A DNA stretch of 60,770 nucleotides from Pseudomonadota bacterium. Lineage in GTDB: Bacteria; Pseudomonadota; Alphaproteobacteria; Sphingomonadales; Sphingomonadaceae. The number at the start of each line of letters is the position of its first letter. Positions within the stretch are counted from its first letter, which is position 1. Below, piece after piece: positions 1,093-59,836 of this stretch. The stretch is taken from positions 1-60,770 of the forward strand of contig JAEZES010000151.1 in NCBI GenBank assembly GCA_023432995.1, in the 5' to 3' direction. The notes under the pieces are model-generated. The model ran no database searches, had not been told where the DNA came from, and worked only from the letters and a program-made list of their open reading frames with translations. Made by a program: the position numbers and the translations under genes.

Positions 1093-3075
1093 CTACTTGC
1101 CTAGTTTGTTGAGAATTTGCGGAACGATGGCCTCGGCCGAGAAGCCGAAGTGCTTGAACAGGACCTCGGCCGGCGCCGACGCGCCGAAGCGGTCGAGTCC
1201 GATCGTCAGGCCGTCGTTGCCGACGTAGCGCTCCCAGCCGAGCGTGACGCCGGCCTCGATCGAAACCTTGAGCACATCGGACGGAAGCAGCTCGGCGCGG
1301 AACCCGGCGTCCTGCTTGTCGAACAGTTCGACACAGGGCATCGAGACAATGTCGGCGCCGATCCCCCGCGCCTCCAATTCCTTGGCACAGTCGAGCGCGA
1401 CCGCAACCTCGGAGCCGGTCGCGACGAGCACCACCTGGCGCGACGCCTCGGCCGCCTTCAGGCGATAGGCGCCCTTCGCGCACCGGTTCTCGGCGCCGCC
1501 GTCGCTGCGCACCGGCGGCAGGTTCTGCCGCGACAGCGCGAGCACCGCGGGGGTGCTGGGGGTCGCCAGCGCAAGCGCCCAGCATTCGGCCGTCTCGATC
1601 GCGTCGGCCGGACGGAACACGTTGAGGTTGGGGATCAGGCGCAGGCTCATGACCTGCTCGACCGGCTGGTGCGTCGGCCCATCCTCGCCGAGGCCGATCG
1701 AATCGTGCGTCAGCACATAAACGACTTGCACCCGCTGCAGCGCCGACAGGCGGATCGCGTTGCGCGCGTAGTCGCTGAAGATCAGGAACGTGCCGCCGTA
1801 GGGCACCACGCCGCCGTGCAGCGCCATGCCGTTCATCGCCGCCGCCATCCCGAACTCGCGGATGCCGTAGTAGATGTAGCGGCCGGAGTAGTCGTTGCGC
1901 GTGAACGGCTGGGTAGCCGCGGTCTTGGTGTTGTTCGAGCCGGTCAGGTCGGCCGAGCCGCCGATCAGCTGCGGCAGGGCCTCGGTCAGCGGACCGAGCG
2001 CCATCTCCGAGGCCTTGCGCGAGGCGACCTTCGGCGGGTCCTGGGCCAGCGAGGCGACGTGCCGGGCCATGATCGGACCGGCGAGTTCGCCGACCGGCTT
2101 GAGCCGCGCCTCGAACGCTTCGCGCTGCGGCGACGCCGCGAGACGAGCCTGCCAGGCGCGGTTGGCGTCGGCGCCCTTCGCCCCGAGCGAGCGCCAGTCG
2201 GCGAGAATCTCCGCCGGAACGACGAACGGCTCGGCGGTCCAGCCGAGGTACTCGCGCGCCGCGGCCACTTCGTCGGCGCCGAGCGGATTGCCGTGCACGG
2301 CGCTCGTGCCCTGCTTGTTGGGGGCGCCCTTGCCGATCACCGTGCGGCAGGCGACCAGCGAGGGGCGCGGGTCGGCCGCGGCCTCGGCCAGAGCGCGGCG
2401 CACGTCGGCGACGTCATGGCCGTCGCACTCGGTCGTGTGCCACCCGGTCGCCCGGTAGCGCGCCGGAATGTCCTCGCTGGTCGAGAGGTCGGTGTGGCCG
2501 TCGATGGTGACCTTGTTGTCGTCCCACAGCACGATCAGGTTGCTGAGCCCAAGATGCCCGGCGAGGCCGATCGCCTCGTGGTTGATCCCTTCCATCAGGC
2601 AGCCGTCGCCAGCGATGACCCAGGTCTTGTGGTCGACCAGTTCGCTGCCGAACACGGCGTTGAGGTGCCGCTCGGCGATCGCCATGCCGACGCCCATCGC
2701 CAGCCCCTGCCCGAGCGGACCGGTGGTCGCCTCGACGCCGTCGATCAGGAAGTTCTCCGGGTGCCCTGCGCAGGGACTGCCGAGCTGACGGAAGTTGCGG
2801 ATGTCGTCCATCGTCGGCGAGGCGTAGCCGGTCAGGTGGAGCAGCGCGTAGATCAGCATCGAGCCGTGGCCGGCCGAGAGCACGAACCGGTCGCGGTCGG
2901 GCCAGTGCGGATCGGCCGGATCGAACTTGAGGAATTCGGAGAACAGCACGGTGGCGACATCGGCCATGCCCATCGGCATGCCCGGGTGGCCGATGTTCGC
3001 CTTCTGCACCGCGTCCATCGACAGGGCGCGAATGGCGTTCGCCATGGGCGCGAGACGGGCGGTATCGAGGCTCAT
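1093..3075 (-). CDS. tkt: Transketolase
   Basis: [29 protein letters not shown] ThDP motif, [11 protein letters not shown]. Confidence 0.98.
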
Positions 3076-3207
3076 GCAGCAAGGCTCCGGGCAACGTGGA
3101 AACGGGGCCGAGAGTCGCCCCCGAGTCGGATGGGCGCTCCTTGGGAAACGCCTGCCGCCGCGTCAAGCGGCGCTCGCCGGCCCCGGGGCCTTAAGCGGCC
3201 CCAAGGT

Positions 3208-3216
3208 TTATTCACA
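3208..3216 (+). promoter_or_regulatory. Candidate DnaA box
   Basis: TTATTCACA matches TTWTNCACA, in the divergent tkt/zapA intergenic region. Confidence 0.4.
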
Positions 3217-3234
3217 GCTTCGACAGCCAACGCT

Positions 3235-3263
3235 TTGCTGGCAAATGCTCTTTCGCCTAGACC
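3235..3263 (+). promoter_or_regulatory. Sigma70-type promoter, probably giving a leaderless zauP-zapA mRNA
   Basis: TTGCTG-N17-TAGACC, 7 nt before ATG 3271; no SD. Confidence 0.5.
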
Positions 3264-3270
3264 TGCAAGC

Positions 3271-3468
3271 ATGGCGGGGGATCGCATCGCGCAGGCGCTG
3301 GCCCGGATCGAGGCCGCGGCAAGCCGGATCGAGGCGGCGGCGGGGTCGCGCGCCCCCACCTCCGCTGGCGGCGACCCGGAGGTTTCTCGCAAGTATGAGA
3401 CCCTGCGCCGGGAGACGGCGGCCGCCCTGGCGGACCTCGACCGCCTGATCGGGTCGCTCGAGCCGTGA
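3271..3468 (+). CDS. Small coiled-coil protein upstream of zapA (ZauP/DUF4164-like)
   Basis: 65 aa, heptad-like IAQALARIEAAASRIE; GTGA overlap with zapA; position matches the alphaproteobacterial zauP-zapA pair. Confidence 0.75.
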   Translation: MAGDRIAQALARIEAAASRIEAAAGSRAPTSAGGDPEVSRKYETLRRETAAALADLDRLIGSLEP

Positions 3469-3773
3469 GCAACGTGACCGTCTCGATCGGCGGACGGCAC
3501 TACACCGTGGCCTGCGCCGCGGGTGAAGAGCAGCACATCGAGATGCTCGGCCGGGCGATCGACGGCAAGTTGCAGGGAATGGCCAACCTCGCCGGGCAGT
3601 CGGAGGCGCGCACGCTGCTGTTCGCGGCGTTGCTGTTGGCCGACGAACTGCATGAGGCCCGCTCTGGAGGGTCCGCGCCGGCCGCCGGGCCCTCGCCGGT
3701 GGTCGGCGACGCGCTCGAGGCGCTGGCGAGCCGGTTGGAGCGTGTCGCGGAACTACTCGAGGGGACCGGCTAG
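3465..3773 (+). CDS. zapA: Cell division protein ZapA
   Basis: VTVSIGGRHYTVAC..GEE and LLFAALLLADEL motifs; tkt/ssrS synteny. Confidence 0.93.
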   Translation: MSNVTVSIGGRHYTVACAAGEEQHIEMLGRAIDGKLQGMANLAGQSEARTLLFAALLLADELHEARSGGSAPAAGPSPVVGDALEALASRLERVAELLEGTG

Positions 3774-4407: not shown

Positions 4408-6378
4408 GTGATCCGCGGCGCAAGGTCGCTGCTCGCGCTGCTCGTGGCGGCGCTGGCGCTCGTGCTGCCTGCACCCGGCAGCGCTGCCCCGTTTCCGTCC
4501 GTCGTCAAGGTCCCGCTCGTGCCGCAGGGCGAGCGGATCGTGTCGTGGCGGAGCGACATCGAGGTGCTTGCCGACGGCACGCTGGACGTCACAGAGACGA
4601 TCCGCGTCAATGTCGAAGGCTACCAGATCAACCGGGGAATCTACCGCGACTTCCCGACCACCTACCAGCGCGACGGCCGCCGCGTTCGCGTCGGCTTCGA
4701 CGTCGAGAGCGTCGAGCGCAATGGCCAGAGCGAGCCCTATGCCCTCGAGAGCGCTGGCAACGGCGTGCGCGTGCGCATCGGCGACGCGGAAGTCTACCTT
4801 CCCCACGGCGAGCACACTTACGTCGTCCGCTACAGGACGACGCGCCAGCTCGGCTTCTTCGCAGGCTACGACGAACTCTACTGGAACGTGACCGGCAACG
4901 GCTGGGCCTTCCCGATCGACCGCGCCGAGGCGCGCATCCGCCTGCCCGAACCGGTGCCGTTCGGTCCGGAACGCGCGTTCTACACCGGCCCGCAGGGCGC
5001 TACCGGCGGCGACGCGGCGGTACTATCGGAGCATCCGGGCGAGATCGTCATCGGCACGACCGCGGCGCTCCAGCCGTACGAGGGCCTGACGGTCGCGGTG
5101 CGCTGGCCCAAAGGTGTTGTCGCCGAGCCGCCTCCGCCCACCGCGGCTCAACTGGCGATGCAGGAACGTGGGCCTGTCGCCGGCGTCGTCGCGGCGCTGG
5201 TCGCACTCTTCGGATACTATTTCATGGCCTGGAAAAGGGCCGGGCGCGGTCCACTTCCCGGCACCGTCGTGCCCCGGTTCGCTCCGCCCGAGGGCATGTC
5301 GGCCGCCGCCGTCCGCTACGTCAAGCGCATGGGCTTCGACGACCGCTGCTTCGCCGCGGCGATCGTCGAGAGCGGCGTGGGCGGCGAGCTCAAGCTGGTC
5401 GAGGGCGAGAAGCCCTTGTTCGGGCGCGCAAAGACGACTCTCGTGCACACGCCGGGTGAAAGCGATCTGCCGCGCGGGGAGCGGAACATGCTGGCGGCGC
5501 TGTTCACCGGCAGCAATTCGATCGAGATGGACGACGCCAACCATGCGCGCTTCGGCGCCGCGCGAAAGGCGCTGCAGGACGCCCTCGAGGACGCCTACAA
5601 GGGCCGCCTGTTCGCCCGCAACCTCGGCTGGGCGTGGGTCGGCATCCTGGTGCTGATCGCGGCGATGCTGTTCGTGGGCACGCTCGTCGCGTGGACCGAT
5701 CTCTACATGACCTCGTTCGAGCGCGCTGTTCCCACGGCGGGACTGGCCCTGGCTCTCTTCGCGCTGGCGCTTCGCTGGCGCCAGGCCAAGGGGTGGCCGC
5801 TGCTCGCACTCGGGGCGCTCGCTGTTCTTGGCAGCATTGTCTTGCTCGTCATGTCGATCGGACTCCTGTCGCAGGCCGTTCCCATCTCGAGCTGGGCGTG
5901 GATGTTCGCCCCGCTGGTCGCTTTACCCGTGGTCCTGTCGGCGTTCGCGTGGATGGCGGCCCCGACGACCGACGGCCGCGCGGTGATGGATCGCATCGAC
6001 GGCTTCGAGCAGTATCTCTCGATCACCGAGGAAGACCGGCTCGAAGCCCTCCATCCCCCCGCGAAGACCCCCGAGCTGTTCGAGCGCTTCCTGCCCTATG
6101 CGATCGCGCTCGGGGTCGAGAACCGCTGGGCCGACAAGTTCGCCGATGTGCTCGCGGCCGCCTCGGCCGATCCTGCGCGCCGGGATAGCGGCACGTTCGG
6201 CTGGTACTCGGGCTCGAGCAACGCCTGGTCGAACCCCTCGCGCTTCGCCGGTACCGTCGGTGCCTCGCTCGCCAGCAGCGTCGCTTCGGCGTCGACCGCC
6301 CCCGGCTCGAGCAGCGGCTCCGGCGGCGGCGGCTCGTCGGGCGGCGGAGGCGGCGGCGGTGGTGGCGGCGGCTGGTAG
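4408..6378 (+). CDS. DUF2207 family membrane protein
   Basis: Signal peptide, RGIYRDFP, YDELYWNVTG, FERFLPYAIALGV, Gly/Ser tail ending GGGGW; usual LemA partner. GTG start at 4408 inferred. Confidence 0.9.
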   Translation: MIRGARSLLALLVAALALVLPAPGSAAPFPSVVKVPLVPQGERIVSWRSDIEVLADGTLDVTETIRVNVEGYQINRGIYRDFPTTYQRDGRRVRVGFDVESVERNGQSEPYALESAGNGVRVRIGDAEVYLPHGEHTYVVRYRTTRQLGFFAGYDELYWNVTGNGWAFPIDRAEARIRLPEPVPFGPERAFYTGPQGATGGDAAVLSEHPGEIVIGTTAALQPYEGLTVAVRWPKGVVAEPPPPTAAQLAMQERGPVAGVVAALVALFGYYFMAWKRAGRGPLPGTVVPRFAPPEGMSAAAVRYVKRMGFDDRCFAAAIVESGVGGELKLVEGEKPLFGRAKTTLVHTPGESDLPRGERNMLAALFTGSNSIEMDDANHARFGAARKALQDALEDAYKGRLFARNLGWAWVGILVLIAAMLFVGTLVAWTDLYMTSFERAVPTAGLALALFALALRWRQAKGWPLLALGALAVLGSIVLLVMSIGLLSQAVPISSWAWMFAPLVALPVVLSAFAWMAAPTTDGRAVMDRIDGFEQYLSITEEDRLEALHPPAKTPELFERFLPYAIALGVENRWADKFADVLAAASADPARRDSGTFGWYSGSSNAWSNPSRFAGTVGASLASSVASASTAPGSSSGSGGGGSSGGGGGGGGGGGW

Positions 6379-54179: not shown

Positions 54180-55082
54180 TCAGGACGCCCGGCAGGTGCC
54201 GGCGGGCAAGGTCACCGCGAAGCGCCCGCTGCGCGAGGCGAACCGCGCGTCGCCGAGCACCCATTGGCCGCCTTGCCGCCGCTCGATGTAGGGCGCGCGC
54301 GCCCAGACGAGAAAGGCGTCGACGTCGCGATCGGCCCGTCGCGCAGCGGCGAGGTCGCACCGATCGAGCCGCAGCTCGCCGACCGAGCGTCCGCCCACTT
54401 GCCACAGGCCGTCGCCGTCGCCCGTGATCATCTCGCGGCGCCAGAAGACCAGCGGCACCTCGTTGGCGATCGCGATCCGCGAGTAAGGTGCATTCAGCCG
54501 GGCGCGCTCCTCGGCCTGCCAGGTGATCGCGGCGTTGAGGCCGACGTAGGCCAGCGCGAGGGCCAGGGCGACGCGGGCTACCTGCCGGCCCTCGCCGCCC
54601 CTCCGATCGCGCCGCAGCGACATCCACGTAGCAAAGCCCAGCCCGAGCCACAGCCACAGGTCGATGATGAACAGCACGTCGCCATAGAACCAGCGCTGGC
54701 TGAACGGCGACAGCAGGCGGATGCCGTAGCTGTTGAGCCAGTCGAGCGCGGGGTGCGTCAGGCAGGCGATAAGCGCGAGCGCGTAGAGCCAGCCGAACCG
54801 GACGGGCACCCGGCCCTCCGGCCGCCTGCCCGCCCGGCCCTGCCATCGGTCGAGCGCCCACAGGACCGCGGCCAGGGCCAGCGGCAGCAGCACCCAGGCG
54901 ATCGGCCCGTGGGTGAGACCGCGGCGCAGGGCGAGGCCCTGCGTTCCCATCAGCATGCACACGCCGTCGACGTCGGGCAGGTTGGCGCCGACGATCAGCG
55001 CCGGCATCGCCAGCCCCGTGCGCAGCTTGAGCCCCGCCTGCCCAATCAGCGCGCCGACGAGGCTATGGGTGAGGTTGTCCAT
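54180..55082 (-). CDS. Membrane-bound metal-dependent hydrolase (YdjM-like)
   Basis: MDNLTHS, NLPDVD, RRGLTH, HPALDWLNSYG. Confidence 0.9.
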   Translation of the reverse strand: MDNLTHSLVGALIGQAGLKLRTGLAMPALIVGANLPDVDGVCMLMGTQGLALRRGLTHGPIAWVLLPLALAAVLWALDRWQGRAGRRPEGRVPVRFGWLYALALIACLTHPALDWLNSYGIRLLSPFSQRWFYGDVLFIIDLWLWLGLGFATWMSLRRDRRGGEGRQVARVALALALAYVGLNAAITWQAEERARLNAPYSRIAIANEVPLVFWRREMITGDGDGLWQVGGRSVGELRLDRCDLAAARRADRDVDAFLVWARAPYIERRQGGQWVLGDARFASRSGRFAVTLPAGTCRAS

Positions 55083-55090
55083 GCTTCCGA

Positions 55091-55115
55091 TTTCTCACGC
55101 CAAGACGCCAAGAGG
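55091..55115 (+). repeat. Left inverted repeat flanking the GxxExxY gene
   Basis: TTTCTC-ACGCCAAG-ACGCCAAG-AGG (two 8-nt units). Confidence 0.85.
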
Positions 55116-55121
55116 TTGCGC

Positions 55122-55517
55122 CTAACGCGGCGAGTCCTCGAAATTGTTAGCCACCCGCCGCAGACCGTCCTTGAAGGTCGCCATCCCGAAGTTCATCAAT
55201 AGCCCGAGCGGCAGGCCCATCAATCGCAAATAGGTCAGCACCTGCTTGCCATGAACCGGCGCGTTGCGCTCGACCGACTTGAGTTCGATCAGAAGACGGT
55301 TCTCGACAACGAGATCCGCCTTGAACGCATTCTCGATGACGACGCCCTTGTAGACGATGGGAACAGAGACCTGCCTGCGCACGGCGAGACCCCGGTGCGA
55401 CAACTCGATGGCCAGCAAGGTCTCATAAACGGACTCGAGAAGTCCGGGACCGACGTCCCTGTGTAGGTGGAAGCCACAATCGATCGCTCTGCGCGCGAGG
55501 CGATCCAGTTCTTCCAC
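55122..55517 (-). CDS. GxxExxY protein (PD-(D/E)XK nuclease superfamily)
   Basis: GLLESVY, ADLVV, IELK, QVLTY, GLLMNFG; 131 aa. Confidence 0.93.
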   Translation of the reverse strand: MEELDRLARRAIDCGFHLHRDVGPGLLESVYETLLAIELSHRGLAVRRQVSVPIVYKGVVIENAFKADLVVENRLLIELKSVERNAPVHGKQVLTYLRLMGLPLGLLMNFGMATFKDGLRRVANNFEDSPR

Positions 55518-55523
55518 GCGGGA

Positions 55524-55556
55524 CCTCTTAGCGTCTTCGCGTCTTGGCGTGCGAAA
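55524..55556 (-). repeat. Right inverted repeat flanking the GxxExxY gene; contains its SD
   Basis: Minus strand TTTCGC-ACGCCAAG-ACGCGAAG-ACGCTAAG-AGG (three 8-nt units); AAGAGG lies 6 nt before GTG 55517. Confidence 0.85.
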
Positions 55557-55559
55557 GAC

Positions 55560-56594
55560 TCAAACCGGATCGGATGCAGTTCCCGAGACGGTCCAGGTCT
55601 GGCCCTTGGCCAGCAGCTTGGCGAGGCTCGCGTCGCGGCCTTCGCTGGCCCTGGCGTTCTGCTCGATCACCGCGCTCTCGAAGGTCGGGCGCGGGTCGTC
55701 GTAGAGCACGCCGAGCGCCATCGGGAACGGGCCGAACGGCAGCTCGACCAGCATGTGCGCGATCGCGCGGTTCCTGACGTTGTGCACGATCACCCCGGCC
55801 GCCTGCCAGTCGCCGTCGACCACGTCGACCACCTGCAGCGACAGCGTCTCGAGGTCGAGCGTGATCCCCTTGGTTCCGCCGGCGAACAGCATCGGCTCGC
55901 CGTCGACCAGCCACAGCTGGCGGTCCTCGGCGCCCTTCGGCTGGGCGAAGTCGTTGAACACGTCCTTGTTGTAGACGACGCAGTTCTGGAAGATCTCGAC
56001 GAACGCCGCGCCCTGGTGGCGGTGCGCCGCCATCAGCACGTCGGGCAGGTTCTTCGACACGTCGAAGCCCCTGGCCACGAACCGCGCGCCCGAGCCGAGC
56101 GCGAAGGCGCACGGGCTGGCCGGCCGGTCGACCGAGCCCTGCGGGGTCGAGGGGGTGGTCGTGCCGAGGCGGCTGGTCGGCGAGTACTGGCCCTTGGTGA
56201 GGCCGTAGATCTCGTTGTTGAACAGCATGATCTGCACGTTCACGTTGCGCCGCAGGACATGCATCAGGTGGTTGCCGCCGATCGACAACCCGTCGCCGTC
56301 GCCGGTCACCAGCCACACGTCGAGCTCGGGGTTGGCCAGCTTGATCCCGGTGGCGAAGGCCGGCGCGCGGCCGTGGATCGTGTGGAAGCCGTAGCTCTCG
56401 ATGTAGTACGGGAAGCGGCTCGAGCAGCCGATGCCGCTGACGAACACGGTCCGCGCCGGATCGGCGCCGAGCTGCGGCAGCGTGCGCTGCACGGCCTTGA
56501 GGATCGCATAGTCGCCGCAGCCCGGGCACCAGCGGACCTCCTGGTCGGACTCCCAGTCCTTGAGCGTGGTTTCGATGGGGGTCATGTCGTTCAT
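55560..56594 (-). CDS. korB: 2-oxoacid:ferredoxin oxidoreductase beta subunit
   Basis: WCPGCGD, SGIGCSSR, HGRA, GDGDGLSIGGNH, YGLTKGQ. Confidence 0.95.
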   Translation of the reverse strand: MNDMTPIETTLKDWESDQEVRWCPGCGDYAILKAVQRTLPQLGADPARTVFVSGIGCSSRFPYYIESYGFHTIHGRAPAFATGIKLANPELDVWLVTGDGDGLSIGGNHLMHVLRRNVNVQIMLFNNEIYGLTKGQYSPTSRLGTTTPSTPQGSVDRPASPCAFALGSGARFVARGFDVSKNLPDVLMAAHRHQGAAFVEIFQNCVVYNKDVFNDFAQPKGAEDRQLWLVDGEPMLFAGGTKGITLDLETLSLQVVDVVDGDWQAAGVIVHNVRNRAIAHMLVELPFGPFPMALGVLYDDPRPTFESAVIEQNARASEGRDASLAKLLAKGQTWTVSGTASDPV

Positions 56595-57031
56595 GGCGTC
56601 ACCTTAGGCCGGACGGGCAGCGCGAAACCGATGCCCAACGCAAAGCCACCGAGGTAGGTCATCAGAGCGCGCGGCACTTCACCGCTCAATGGATGCCAAG
56701 CGATAATGCTGCTCCACGCATCGTAGGAAGCCTGCGGGATGAGCTGTCCTGCGAGAAGCAGCGCGACACCGCCGCCAAGAACCAGAAGCTTGGTAACTAG
56801 CAGCAGCCGCTGCTTTTCATCAGGCGTGATGTCCGCCGGTTCATAGGAAGCAGGCCCGACCTTCCGCTTCGCAATCTCCCCGGAAATCACGCCGAACGAA
56901 AGTCCCAGCAGTCCGGCAAGAAAGACCTGGGTCGGGAAGAAAAGATGGGCGACCGCCGCGCCCGCAATTCCCAAGAGCCAGGGAAGCGGAGTGTTGATTG
57001 GTCCCGACACATTGAGATTACGTCTGCTCAC
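56591..57031 (-). CDS. Hypothetical four-TM membrane protein between korA and korB
   Basis: 146 aa, four hydrophobic segments, 4-nt overlaps with both neighbours. Confidence 0.7.
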   Translation of the reverse strand: MSRRNLNVSGPINTPLPWLLGIAGAAVAHLFFPTQVFLAGLLGLSFGVISGEIAKRKVGPASYEPADITPDEKQRLLLVTKLLVLGGGVALLLAGQLIPQASYDAWSSIIAWHPLSGEVPRALMTYLGGFALGIGFALPVRPKVTP

Positions 57032-59010
57032 GTCTTCGCCCCACTCTGCGGCGAATGTGCGCGGTGCAGCGAGCCGTCGTCATGGCCCGATTGCGGCTCG
57101 GGCAACTGGCCGGCGTCGGCCGGGACTTCGCCGCCCTCGTTGTCCGGAATGCCGTCGAAGTACTTCGCGATCGCCGCTTCCATTTCGGCGATGCTGAACG
57201 GCTGGCCGCTGGTCTTGGTCAGGCTGTCGGCGTCGACGAGGAGCTGGTCGCGCAGCACGGTCTTGAACTGGCCGGTGTTCATCTCCGGCACCAGCACTTT
57301 GTCGAAGCCCTTGAGCAGCGCGCCGAGGTTCTTCGGCAGCGGCCAGACGTGGCGGACGTGGACGTGGCTGACCGACAGGCCCTTCGCGCGCGCCCTGCGC
57401 ACGGCCTGGTGGATCGGGCCGAAAGTGCTGCCCCAGCCGACCACCACGAGGCGGCCGCCGGCCTCGCCCAGGCACACCTCCTGGTCGGGCACGGCGATGC
57501 GGTCGATCTTGGCCTTGCGCGCGTCGGTCATCGCTTGGTGGTTGGCCGGCGAGTAGTCGATGTTGCCGGTGTCCTGGTGCTTCTCGATGCCGCCGATGCG
57601 GTGCATCAGGCCCGGGGTGCCCGGCTTGATCCACGGGCGCGCGCCCTTTTCGTCGCGCTTGTACGGGAGCAGCGTGTCGCCGGCGTTCTTCTCCTCGAGG
57701 AAGCTGACCGGGAATGGCGCGTAGCTGGCCGGGTCGGGCACCTTCCACGGCTCGGCGGCGTTGGCGATGTAGCCGTCGGTCAGCAGCATGACCGGAGTCA
57801 TGTATTGGACCGCGATGCGGCACGCCTCGATCGCCACCTCGAACGCGTCGGCCGGCGAGCGCGCGGCGATCACCGGCACCGGCGCGTCGCCGTTGCGGCC
57901 GTAGACCGCCTGGTAGAGGTCGCTCTGCTCGGTCTTGGTCGGCAGGCCGGTCGAAGGCCCGCCGCGCTGCGAGTTGACGATCACCAGCGGCAGCTCGGTC
58001 ATGATCGCCAGGCCCATCGCTTCGCCCTTGAGCGCGATGCCCGGGCCCGACGACGAGGTCACGCCGAGCTGGCCGGCGTAGGAGGCGCCGATCGCGGCGC
58101 AGATCGCGGCGATCTCGTCCTCGGCCTGGAAGGTGGTGACGCCGAACTCCTTGAGCCGCGCGAGGTGGTGCAGGATCGCCGAGGCCGGGGTGATAGGATA
58201 GCCGCCGAAGAACATCGGCAGGCCCGCGAGCTGCGCGCCCGCGACGAGGCCTAGGCTGACGCTCTCGGCGCCGGTGATCGTGCGGTAGAGGCCCGGCTCG
58301 GTCTGAACCGGCGCGAGGTGGAACTGGCGCAGCGGCCCGGCCAGCTCGGCGGTCTCGCCGTAGGCGTGGCCGGCGTTGAGCGCGGCGACGTTGGCGGCGG
58401 CGATCTCAGGCTTCTTGGCGAACTTGGCGTTGAGCCAGTCGATCAGCGGCTGCCGGTCGCGGTCGAACATCCACAGCGCGAGGCCGAGGGTCCACATGTT
58501 CTTCGAGCGCAGCGCGTCCTTGTTGCCGAGCCCGAACGGCTTGACCGCCTCGATCGTCAGCGCCGAGATGTCGAACGCGAGCACGTCCCACCTCGCCAGG
58601 CTGCCGTCCTCGAGCGGGTTGCTGTCGTACTTGGCCTTCTCGAGGTTGCGCTTGGTGAACTCCCCGGTGTCGGCGATGATCAGCCCGCCCGGCTTGAGCG
58701 CGGCGAGGTTCACCTTGAGCGCGGCCGGGTTCATCGCCACCAGCACGTCGGGCGCGTCGCCGGCGGTGTCGATCTCGGTCGAGCCGAAGTTGATCTGGAA
58801 CGCCGAGACGCCGAACAGCGTGCCTTGCGGCGCGCGGATCTCGGCCGGGAAATCGGGGAAGGTGGCGAGGTCGTTGCCGGCGAGCGCGGTGGACAGCGTG
58901 AACTGCCCTCCGGTCAGCTGCATGCCATCGCCGCTGTCGCCCGCGAAGCGGACCACGACCGCTTCGGGAGCCTGTGCCTGGGCCGGTCGCTCGGCCGCCA
59001 GAGTTGCCAT
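57028..59010 (-). CDS. korA: 2-oxoacid:acceptor oxidoreductase alpha subunit
   Basis: AGDSGDG, AEIRAP, YPITP, QAEDEIAA, QRGGPSTG, EMNTGQ. Confidence 0.95.
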   Translation of the reverse strand: MATLAAERPAQAQAPEAVVVRFAGDSGDGMQLTGGQFTLSTALAGNDLATFPDFPAEIRAPQGTLFGVSAFQINFGSTEIDTAGDAPDVLVAMNPAALKVNLAALKPGGLIIADTGEFTKRNLEKAKYDSNPLEDGSLARWDVLAFDISALTIEAVKPFGLGNKDALRSKNMWTLGLALWMFDRDRQPLIDWLNAKFAKKPEIAAANVAALNAGHAYGETAELAGPLRQFHLAPVQTEPGLYRTITGAESVSLGLVAGAQLAGLPMFFGGYPITPASAILHHLARLKEFGVTTFQAEDEIAAICAAIGASYAGQLGVTSSSGPGIALKGEAMGLAIMTELPLVIVNSQRGGPSTGLPTKTEQSDLYQAVYGRNGDAPVPVIAARSPADAFEVAIEACRIAVQYMTPVMLLTDGYIANAAEPWKVPDPASYAPFPVSFLEEKNAGDTLLPYKRDEKGARPWIKPGTPGLMHRIGGIEKHQDTGNIDYSPANHQAMTDARKAKIDRIAVPDQEVCLGEAGGRLVVVGWGSTFGPIHQAVRRARAKGLSVSHVHVRHVWPLPKNLGALLKGFDKVLVPEMNTGQFKTVLRDQLLVDADSLTKTSGQPFSIAEMEAAIAKYFDGIPDNEGGEVPADAGQLPEPQSGHDDGSLHRAHSPQSGAKT

Positions 59011-59669: not shown

Positions 59670-59836
59670 GCAGCCCTCATCCAAGCTCCGCTAACCGCCT
59701 TCGGCGGTAAGCTGCGCTATCCTTCTCCCACCAGTGGGAGAAGGATAGCGCCGCGCCAGTCCTTCTCCCGTTGACGGGAGAAGGATAGCGAAGGTTAGGT
59801 CCGTCAGGACCTTACCGGAGCTTGAATGAGGGCTGC
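59670..59836. repeat. Composite dyad-symmetric palindromic element (RIME/REPIN/MITE-like) between convergent genes
   Basis: 21-nt outer arms with one mismatch, two CCTTCTCCC/GGGAGAAGG hairpins and two small hairpins. Confidence 0.85.

Follow-up and report, generated by a model that had tools for sequence, protein, structure and literature searches.

The 466-bp unit at positions 55091-55556 of contig JAEZES010000151.1 (assembly GCA_023432995.1; Sphingomonadaceae), the whole 60,770 nt of which constitute the window analyzed here, consists of a gene for a small protein of the GxxExxY (PF13366) family with a PD-(D/E)XK nuclease fold and of two inverted arms, built of tandem 8-nt repeat units, that bracket it. 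Comparison with homologous loci shows that such genes and their arms are inherited and horizontally transferred as one package, and that the co-transferred cassettes lie at many sites just behind stop codons, are accompanied by gene-less and decayed derivatives, and display at least one presence/absence difference. With a confidence that stops a little short of even, we interpret the unit in the window as one member, resident at its site, of a family of nuclease cassettes that is apparently undescribed and moves only rarely. In this family the arms would constitute both the ends of the element and its cis-acting sites and would also fold in the transcript.

The gene (55122..55517, minus strand) starts with a GTG codon and encodes a protein of 131 aa. 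The arm on its 3' side (55091-55115) reads TTTCTC-ACGCCAAG-ACGCCAAG-AGG on the plus strand and that on its 5' side (55524-55556) reads TTTCGC-ACGCCAAG-ACGCGAAG-ACGCTAAG-AGG on the minus strand, both being composed of tandem ACGCNAAG units, of which there are three in the 5' arm and two in the 3' arm. Spacers of 6 nt separate the 5' arm from the GTG (55518-55523) and the stop codon from the 3' arm (55116-55121), and the inner end of the 5' arm provides a Shine-Dalgarno (SD)-like AAGAGG (55524-55529, minus strand) 6 nt ahead of the start codon. As an inverted repeat the two arms are 91% complementary over 23 nt (55091-55113 with 55534-55556), and when shifted by one 8-nt unit they are 84% complementary over 25 nt. 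If as many as 3 mismatches are tolerated, the 19-mer ACGCCAAGACGCCAAGAGG has three matches in the window, every one of them in the arms, against 0.00 expected from 100 shuffles; a lone 8-mer is not enriched window-wide (13 matches vs 9.3 expected), with 5 of the 13 lying within the arms. Upstream and co-oriented with the gene is korB (55560-56594, minus strand), encoding the beta subunit of a 2-oxoacid:ferredoxin oxidoreductase (TPP_enzyme_C; PorB_KorB subfamily, 251 bits), whose stop codon is 3 nt from the outer end of the 5' arm, while downstream, also co-oriented, is a gene for a membrane hydrolase of the YdjM family (54180-55082, minus strand), whose ATG is 8 nt from the outer end of the 3' arm. 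The gap between korB and ydjM is wholly occupied by the GxxExxY gene and its arms, and no promoter-like or terminator-like consensus was detected in it on the minus strand. The initial annotation of this stretch had already placed the 131-aa gene 6 nt inside inverted repeats built of 8-mers, derived the SD sequence from the upstream repeat, and described the unit as filling the korB-YdjM space in the same orientation with no room for a promoter or terminator; all of this holds, and the coordinates it gave are exact.

Sequence profile analysis of the protein recovered TIGR04256 (GxxExxY; E 5.8e-38, with 129.8 bits where the cut-off is 35 and an alignment over positions 2-115 of the 116 in the model) and PF13366 (PDDEXK_3; E 2.4e-37, 128.3 bits against a cut-off of 22, model positions 3-117 of 117) as its sole Pfam and NCBIfam matches, and the protein is not an HUH/Y1 enzyme. 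Across 86 sequences E28 (the E of GxxExxY), D68, E78, K80 and Q92 are invariant, and of these we take D68, E78 and K80 to be the residues of the PD-(D/E)XK motif, following the general pattern of that superfamily. The AlphaFold2 (AF2) model (pLDDT 94.3, pTM 0.88) has secondary-structure elements in the order H-H-E-E-E-H-E, and the solved structures nearest to it in fold, although weak as matches (E 5e-3 to 9e-3, TM 0.44-0.50), are those of Hjc, an archaeal resolvase of Holliday junctions, and of Cas4 SSO0001. The modeled core fold, together with the acidic residues and the lysine, agrees with membership in the PD-(D/E)XK superfamily, to which the initial annotation had assigned GxxExxY proteins, and judging from model and alignment the protein looks active. 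The family is very large: clustering at 50% identity gives 18,455 groups with E<=1e-3 and 5,903 with E<=1e-10. Tandem two-domain proteins of 263-295 aa (P0121-P0124, P0128, P0129 and others) are found among its top 150 representatives, and these fusions may fit a dimeric working unit, on which a two-copy complex prediction (score 0.00, mark 0.42) gives no evidence either way. Elsewhere little was recovered: a search of PDB by sequence gave no relative and only a chance match to eL14 (E 0.37), ESM Atlas gave no usable match, neither PHROGs nor a tblastn search of 50,697 phage records gave any match, and PADLOC gave only a weak match (E 2.5e-4 over 51 residues) to RTasPDDEXK, the PD-(D/E)XK accessory of a DRT. 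Rfam yielded no meaningful match for positions 54900-55750 at E<=10 or for nine cassette loci (54.8 kb) at E<=1. A literature search, confined to main texts, found no description of these arms or of the function of the GxxExxY family, and a review table gives the function of GxxExxY/PF13366 as 'Unknown', with a remark on multiple transfers (PMC3424549).

Species-representative genomes were scanned with an alignment of 30 close relatives, and the best 80 loci of 594 confirmed stretches, at 45-66% identity, were examined. These loci belong to at least ten phyla, with Alphaproteobacteria, Verrucomicrobiota, Planctomycetota, Cyanobacteriota, Acidobacteriota, Chloroflexota, Bacteroidota, Thermodesulfobacteriota and Myxococcota among the groups represented. 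A strict array pattern, requiring at least two tandem N-C-R-C-N-R-N-G units with adjacent units identical at 6 or more of 8 positions, recovered 186 arrays in 81 loci, the commonest unit cores being CGCAAAG (144), CGCGGAG (60), CGCCAAG (58), CGCGAAG (55) and CGCAGAG (37). The arms of the family are inverted arrays of 2-6 tandem 8-nt units around a gene of approximately 125-135 aa, with the consensus unit N-C-R-C-N-R-A-G and a conserved outer end, YTC-AC / GT-GAR. A purine-rich array upstream and its complement downstream bracket the gene in 36 of the 80 loci (a '> gene <' arrangement), whereas this arrangement never occurred in 15,800 gene-sized placements drawn at random 600 nt or more from the gene; at least one array lies within about 110 nt of the gene in 67 loci (the 36 bracketed and 31 more), as against 358 of the random placements with any array nearby. 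Inverted octamer arms beside homologues, as implied by the initial annotation, are hence a feature of the family. In 21 of the 36 canonical loci the 5' arm lies 0-9 nt from the start codon. When the 100 nt upstream of each gene were aligned with the reverse complement of the 100 nt downstream, the complementarity exceeded the 95th percentile of mismatched-locus pairs in 31 of 79 loci and the 99th in 20, relative to a control that is itself inflated because the arms of different loci resemble one another; L038, with a short flank, and L031, lacking a start codon, were left out of this comparison. A Bacteroides homologue has arms of the same design with a 9-nt period. On a plasmid of Fusobacteria bacterium ZRK30 (L083, 2492-3825) a distant GxxExxY gene, flanked by 27-nt direct repeats with an SD sequence after each, has, like that of the window, a gene of the YdjM family directly after it (E 1.7e-23), so that this adjacency occurs in two lineages that are far apart.

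A quick maximum-likelihood tree of 86 proteins (LG+G4, SH-aLRT only) has the phyla thoroughly mixed, with for instance an archaeal sequence beside one from Anaerolineales and Chthoniobacter beside a sequence from Flavobacteriaceae. The dominant unit type of the arms nevertheless follows this tree, needing 26 changes vs 36.4 with shuffled labels (0 of 300 shuffles being as low), and position 6 of the unit needs 6 changes vs 15.0. Clades with a single unit type cross phyla, as in the case of CGCGGAG in Chloroflexota, Verrucomicrobiota and Sphingomonadales, and the CACCAAG unit is shared by one verrucomicrobial and one bacteroidotal locus. The co-variation of repeat unit and protein phylogeny that had been suggested at the outset is thus present, and on this tree the clustering of units shows co-inheritance of the arms with the gene, not necessarily their co-evolution.

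Pfam annotation of neighbors, which covered 140 ORFs (open reading frames) of L001-L042, the other 129 ORFs being outside it, revealed unrelated housekeeping genes as the flanks. Over 41 loci these include korB and YdjM, fabD and fabG, gyrB-like and topoisomerase IV A genes, an ABC ATPase and FtsX, TrpRS, MetH, GcpE, RecR, RhuM and HsdR, a phage terminase, and others. In 16 of the 26 co-oriented cases with Pfam support, the upstream stop codon lies 60 nt or less from the start of the cassette, and in 12 of the 26 the arm begins 3-16 nt past that stop; the lack of room for a promoter is therefore general in the family. Co-orientation itself was not used as evidence, the hand count (26 same and 7 opposite upstream, 21 and 11 downstream) being in our judgment near the norm for adjacent bacterial genes. 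None of the 81 loci contained any of four conserved motifs of rRNA. In a Cephaloticoccus metagenome-assembled genome (MAG) a cassette (L012, 1857-2294) is lodged between gyrB/parE-like and topoisomerase IV/gyrase A-like genes with its ORF abutting the downstream start, this being another essential operon that hosts a cassette.

The same arms also occur with no gene between them. The gene-less inverted pairs that had been anticipated were found 22 times in 16 of the 81 loci, as '> <' arrangements with loops of 13-205 nt, and in dispersed form in replicons of Sphingomonas and Sphingopyxis. GxxExxY remnants were present in just 2 of the 22 loops, and the idea that the loops are gene remnants in general was rejected on account of the other 20; two GxxExxY genes have internal stops. 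At five loci the gene is situated between two gene-less hairpins, and in L003 and L006 these hairpins are direct copies of each other. The L003 gene with its two hairpins (1457-3703, an alphaproteobacterial MAG) comes right after a gene for a phage-type large terminase, which is a typical neighborhood for free-standing homing endonucleases. In a Bryobacterales MAG (L054, 4370-5730) approximately four tandem 234-nt units follow an intact cassette gene, each containing the final ~45 codons of that gene together with an octamer arm of the 5' type, with a further fragment at 5572-5706; these could have arisen by recombination between arms or could be an assembly artefact.

A 37-nt arm query from Sphingomonas parapaucimobilis (E<=1) matched 17 places in 8 records of a plasmid collection, all from Sphingomonas or Sphingopyxis. 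Twelve of the arm places lie in ~3.9 Mb of S. parapaucimobilis records, which are evidently pieces of the chromosome, and only 2 of the 12 are at the single cassette detected there, so that in this species an inverted repeat flanking the gene is also found gene-less in the same genome, as is typical of repetitive extragenic palindromic (REP) sequences and REPINs. Directly after the hisF stop codon and before hisE, S. parapaucimobilis has a nested gene-less element with CGCGAAG-type arms around CGCGGAG-type ones, and a triple-nested gene-less element follows an aminopeptidase gene. A plasmid of S. hankookensis has a gene-less hairpin between divergent genes, and pMC4 of Sphingopyxis indica one between ileS and ribF. 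The copy number of the octamer element looks low. The 380-nt his-operon element (L086, 1496-1875) was rejected as a probe for it: the inner loop (query 133-248) is a separate, abundant palindromic repeat, which accounts for many of the 220 places found with this probe in Sphingomonas and Sphingobium records and so inflates that figure.

Two cassette positions are widely shared within Sphingomonadales. The arrangement korB-cassette-ydjM is common to the window, Sphingopyxis sp. HIX (L004) and a Parasphingorhabdus MAG (L001), as seen by tblastx of the flanks, the downstream YdjM protein starting with MDNLTH or LDNLTH in each; in Sphingomonas canadensis (L008) korB is likewise upstream, but a photolyase gene is downstream. 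The arrangement fabD-cassette-fabG is found in ten fetched loci and in an annotated S. parapaucimobilis record, its hosts being Sphingomonas, Allosphingosinicella, Sphingorhabdus and Novosphingobium, which represent several families of the order. Each group falls on one side of a tree branch (supports 93 and 90), with one differently located sequence nested in each (L002, L033). The units at korB are CGCCAAG in the window, CGCAAAG in L004, CACGAAG in L001 and CACAAAG/CACGAAG in L008, while those at fabD-fabG are CGCGAAG, CGCGGAG or CGCAGAG, and in orthologous cassettes the unit variant is altered in both arms together. From this distribution the copy in the window looks ancient, vertically inherited and fixed in the korAB-ydjM operon. 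In the fabD-fabG cassettes L046, L048, L052, L034, L050, L055, L060, L041, L019 and L081 the ORF crosses the 3' arm, from which it acquires a Ser/Arg/Pro-rich tail of ~10-15 aa, and stops 3-20 nt ahead of the fabG ATG, over its GGAG SD sequence; this suggests that the cassette ORF may be translationally coupled to the essential fabG.

A tblastn search of plasmid records for insertion polymorphism matched 7 records. In Sphingomonas paeninsulae, fabD and fabG are separated by a clean empty site of 32 nt with no arm trace except a TGAAC resembling the right end of the cassette, whereas at least 11 relatives have this site filled; more distant alphaproteobacteria also lack an insert there. Of the empty sites that had been expected, one is thus present at another insertion point, fabD-fabG, and may represent an insertion polymorphism of the kind known from terminal inverted repeat (TIR) transposons and miniature inverted-repeat transposable elements (MITEs), whereas for the korB-ydjM copy itself, to which the expectation had been addressed, inheritance in three genera looks vertical. 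Plasmid records searched for an unoccupied korB-ydjM junction yielded no match from Sphingomonadales. In the S. paeninsulae record (L085, 1262-1999) fabG is not listed as a coding sequence, in tables that omit pseudogenes, and its frame from the conserved ATGTTCGAC start seems interrupted, the longest ORF beginning at 1337, for which an error of sequencing or a true frameshift could be responsible.

The arms of a given cassette remain complementary by what comparison of orthologous copies shows to be compensatory changes. In ten aligned fabD-fabG cassettes with a 28-pair stem, 88.6% of cells pair, and a shift of the partner by 1-3 columns lowers this to 30-58%; both sides have changed in 7 of the 28 pairs (17 cells), and the covariation score was reached by 0 of 500 shuffles. 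Among 93 unit pairs from the 36 canonical loci, position N1 of the unit is identical between arms in 75% of cases in the mirrored register, as compared to 43% in shifted registers and 45% between loci, while positions 3 and 6 are 94-99% uniform within a locus in any register and 78% and 51% so between loci. Two signals therefore coexist, one being the use of one unit variant per locus and the other a unit-by-unit match of the arms. RNA folding of the cassette in the window (-215.8 kcal/mol, z -3.4) predicts that the arms pair around the ORF with one unit bulged, in keeping with the initial suggestion that they could loop out the gene, and that the SD sequence AAGAGG is paired inside the stem.

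Taking these observations together, we infer that the arms are the termini of the element and the cis-sites of its own nuclease, and that the defined 8-nt repeat, as duplex or hairpin, is the likely substrate of the GxxExxY protein. The nuclease, which is probably dimeric, would act on the arms as its putative cis-sites, in line with the proposal of the initial annotation that the unit is the autonomous form of a repeat family mobilized by this nuclease. Relocation would occur rarely: the nuclease would cut at arms that are paired or in hairpin form, and repair by the host would then complete the move with no target duplication. Between such moves the cassette would persist for very long periods, plausibly because it is harmless. 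It would be transcribed by read-through from the operon and translated from an SD sequence supplied by the purine-rich 5' arm, while in the transcript the arms could pair as a stem of 23-30 bp, with the ORF in its loop, and so keep synthesis of the nuclease low. The same stem would bring the stop codon of the upstream gene beside the start of the downstream gene and would be a likely substrate for RNase III, as in the intervening sequences of 23S rRNA; read-through, arm-borne SD and stem would jointly render the insertion tolerable.

Several known systems resemble the cassette in part. The intervening sequence (IVS) with an S23p ORF in the 23S rRNA of Coxiella burnetii is described as 428 nt long with a 28-bp terminal stem and an AG-rich SD sequence, as carrying two to three tandem heptamers, variable in number, before the start codon, and as excised by RNase III, with a mobile origin cited as one hypothesis (PMC4990558). 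The IVS and the cassette are alike in size (428 nt vs 466 bp), in a single small ORF of ~120-130 aa in the loop, in terminal inverted repeats forming a stem (~28 bp there), in an AG-rich SD in the 5' part, in short tandem repeats of variable number before the start (heptamers there, two to six octamers here), and in lying within a host transcript with long vertical inheritance. The cassette differs in that its host is an mRNA operon (korB and ydjM flanks) and not a helix of 23S or 16S rRNA, its ORF encodes a PD-(D/E)XK nuclease and not the four-helix-bundle S23p, and its arms are made wholly of a conserved octamer. In the Drosophila FB element and in Ac/Ds and En/Spm, terminal inverted repeats are formed of short tandem or subterminal units that serve as multiple protein-binding sites. 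The cassette is reminiscent of these in its inverted ends of many short units with fixed polarity; however, those elements are eukaryotic, use DDE or other transposases and generate target duplications, whereas here there is a minimal nuclease and no duplication. Homing endonuclease genes, free-standing or intron-borne, include the PD-(D/E)XK enzyme I-Ssp6803I and leave the copying to host repair, and like them the cassette comprises a small nuclease gene between conserved genes and shows presence and absence at one site (fabD-fabG); yet homing genes are not known to have conserved terminal arms and have one target sequence, whereas the cassette arms occur at dozens of unrelated sites. Finally, in the 5'-3' pairing of the hok mRNA and in read-through transcripts of IS10, a gene whose product may do harm has its ribosome-binding site masked by long-range pairing, as is predicted here for read-in transcripts, although those pairings are not known to involve repeated units or symmetric bracketing of the gene at the DNA level.

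A number of observations weigh against the interpretation as a rarely mobile element. A PD-(D/E)XK nuclease cuts and has no known joining activity, so that integration would need host functions. The cassettes possess inverted ends, as TIR transposons and MITEs do, but no consistent target duplication was found outside the ends of 36 of them; the GA dinucleotide that was correctly noted outside both ends in the window is therefore probably chance (1 in 16). Nor were further arm copies, a search for which the initial annotation had proposed, found elsewhere in the 60.8-kb window; a 50-kb sample of S. parapaucimobilis had one element, and 487 kb of distal flanks had nine arrays of three or more units. 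The occurrence of korB-ydjM copies in three genera and of fabD-fabG copies in ten fetched loci implies that movement is rare at best, and the single empty site, being in a different species, cannot tell loss from never having been inserted. Thirteen of the 80 loci have no array by the strict pattern, and distant homologues (Fusobacteria, Prevotella and the second copy in L037) have direct instead of inverted flanking repeats. At the RNA level, the ORF enters or crosses the 3' arm in 14 of the 36 canonical loci, where translating ribosomes would consequently oppose the stem, and the mismatches between arms (39 sense-compatible, 54 antisense-compatible, 154 transversions) have no sense-strand G-U bias, so that pairing specifically in mRNA is not supported.

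Alternatively, the arms might be solely an RNA-level device, with a host-useful nuclease gene whose product never acts on them: as cis-regulatory or insulating transcript structures they would hide the SD sequence, couple translation to the upstream gene or create an RNase III site, and keep the operon non-polar, while ordinary horizontal transfer and recombination would spread the unit between sites. This would accord well with a 5' arm that abuts the start codon and supplies its SD, with cassettes that leave no room for a promoter, with complementarity kept by compensatory changes in vertically inherited loci, with an ORF enclosed by a predicted stem and, at fabD-fabG, ending over the fabG SD in a manner suggestive of translational coupling, and with the precedent of the IVS stem processed by RNase III. 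We nonetheless consider it unlikely on the whole, since pairing alone would permit drift, yet across phyla whose proteins are 45-50% identical the unit retains C2, C4, A7 and G8 and the outer end retains YTCAC, and the hairpin has a fixed polarity; arms of this kind also persist as gene-less hairpins where there is nothing to regulate, even between divergent genes; the G-U bias expected on the sense strand is absent; and the joint landing of arms and gene at many unrelated sites is unexplained by ordinary recombination. It is also conceivable, but distinctly improbable, that the true replicators are the gene-less hairpins, which a master nuclease would disperse or maintain. The GxxExxY gene for this nuclease would be present once, be inherited vertically and have the arms of the hairpins on either side, much as RAYT genes have REPs. 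REPIN-RAYT systems too have a small nuclease gene between inverted repeats of its own, hairpin doublets without the gene elsewhere in the genome, long persistence that is described as mostly vertical, and a repeat sequence that co-varies with the protein lineage, and the stability at korB-ydjM and fabD-fabG, the hairpins dispersed beside a single detected cassette in S. parapaucimobilis, the nesting of gene-less elements in one another and the five genes between two gene-less hairpins all point in this direction. What separates the two is the enzyme, PD-(D/E)XK and not HUH/Y1; the repeat, tandem octamers and not a single REP palindrome; the seemingly low copy numbers (none elsewhere in the window, one element in a 50-kb sample and nine distal arrays in 487 kb, where REP populations typically number tens to hundreds per genome); and the horizontal scatter of gene and arms across phyla, in which they are unlike RAYTs.

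A self-targeting or addiction module, in which the nuclease would have the repeat RNA or its duplex as a substrate or inhibitor, much as toxins have repeat-RNA antitoxins, and the cassette would thereby be stabilized, could account for tandem repeats immediately upstream of the gene, for strictly conserved catalytic residues and for long persistence inside essential operons; we regard it as very improbable, given that a structured RNA inhibitor could hardly be expected from units as short as 8 nt, that defense and toxin libraries gave just the one weak PADLOC match, and that pseudogenized copies exist with no obvious consequence. That the arms are a chance similarity, or an ordinary terminator or REP sequence unrelated to the gene, can for practical purposes be set aside: the lone 8-mer is indeed unremarkable in the window, but the 19-mer is not, the same arms accompany homologues in many phyla and not a single random placement, and there is no T-run after the arms and no terminator-like site was called. 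The interpretation as a rarely mobile cassette admits of a bolder form, which we think possible if doubtful: that these are a new class of mobile element whose sole enzyme is a minimal PD-(D/E)XK nuclease recognizing octamer hairpin or cruciform ends, which inserts behind operon stop codons with no duplication and has the gene-less hairpins as non-autonomous progeny, the ORF-bearing IVSs of rRNA being one branch of a broader and ancient lifestyle of stem-bounded cassettes residing within transcripts of the host.

The association of a cis-element with the gene offers a first testable handle on the very large GxxExxY/PF13366 family, and the cassettes seated in essential operons (fatty-acid synthesis, histidine, topoisomerase and 2-oxoacid oxidoreductase), which remain unbroken, form a natural model of non-polar insertion. 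If mobility were true, it would add a class of nuclease to the few enzymes known to mobilize DNA in bacteria, and would link rRNA intervening sequences, REPINs and operon-embedded cassettes. Annotators could in any case treat the arms and the gene-less hairpins as features and not as noise.

Two further features of the window deserve mention. Between korA (57028-59010) and korB is an ORF of 146 aa (56591-57031, minus strand) that overlaps each of them by 4 nt; it has no Pfam match, contains hydrophobic stretches, and would seem to be another small gene lodged in this operon. After a Nudix-like gene, positions 59670-59836 form a nested palindrome of 167 nt, with outer arms of 25 nt at 92% and two inner hairpins that have the motif TCCTTCTCCC...GGGAGAAGGA in common. 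Rfam gave nothing above threshold for this palindrome, the sub-threshold hits being to miRNA models only, and it may represent another repeat element or a bidirectional terminator.

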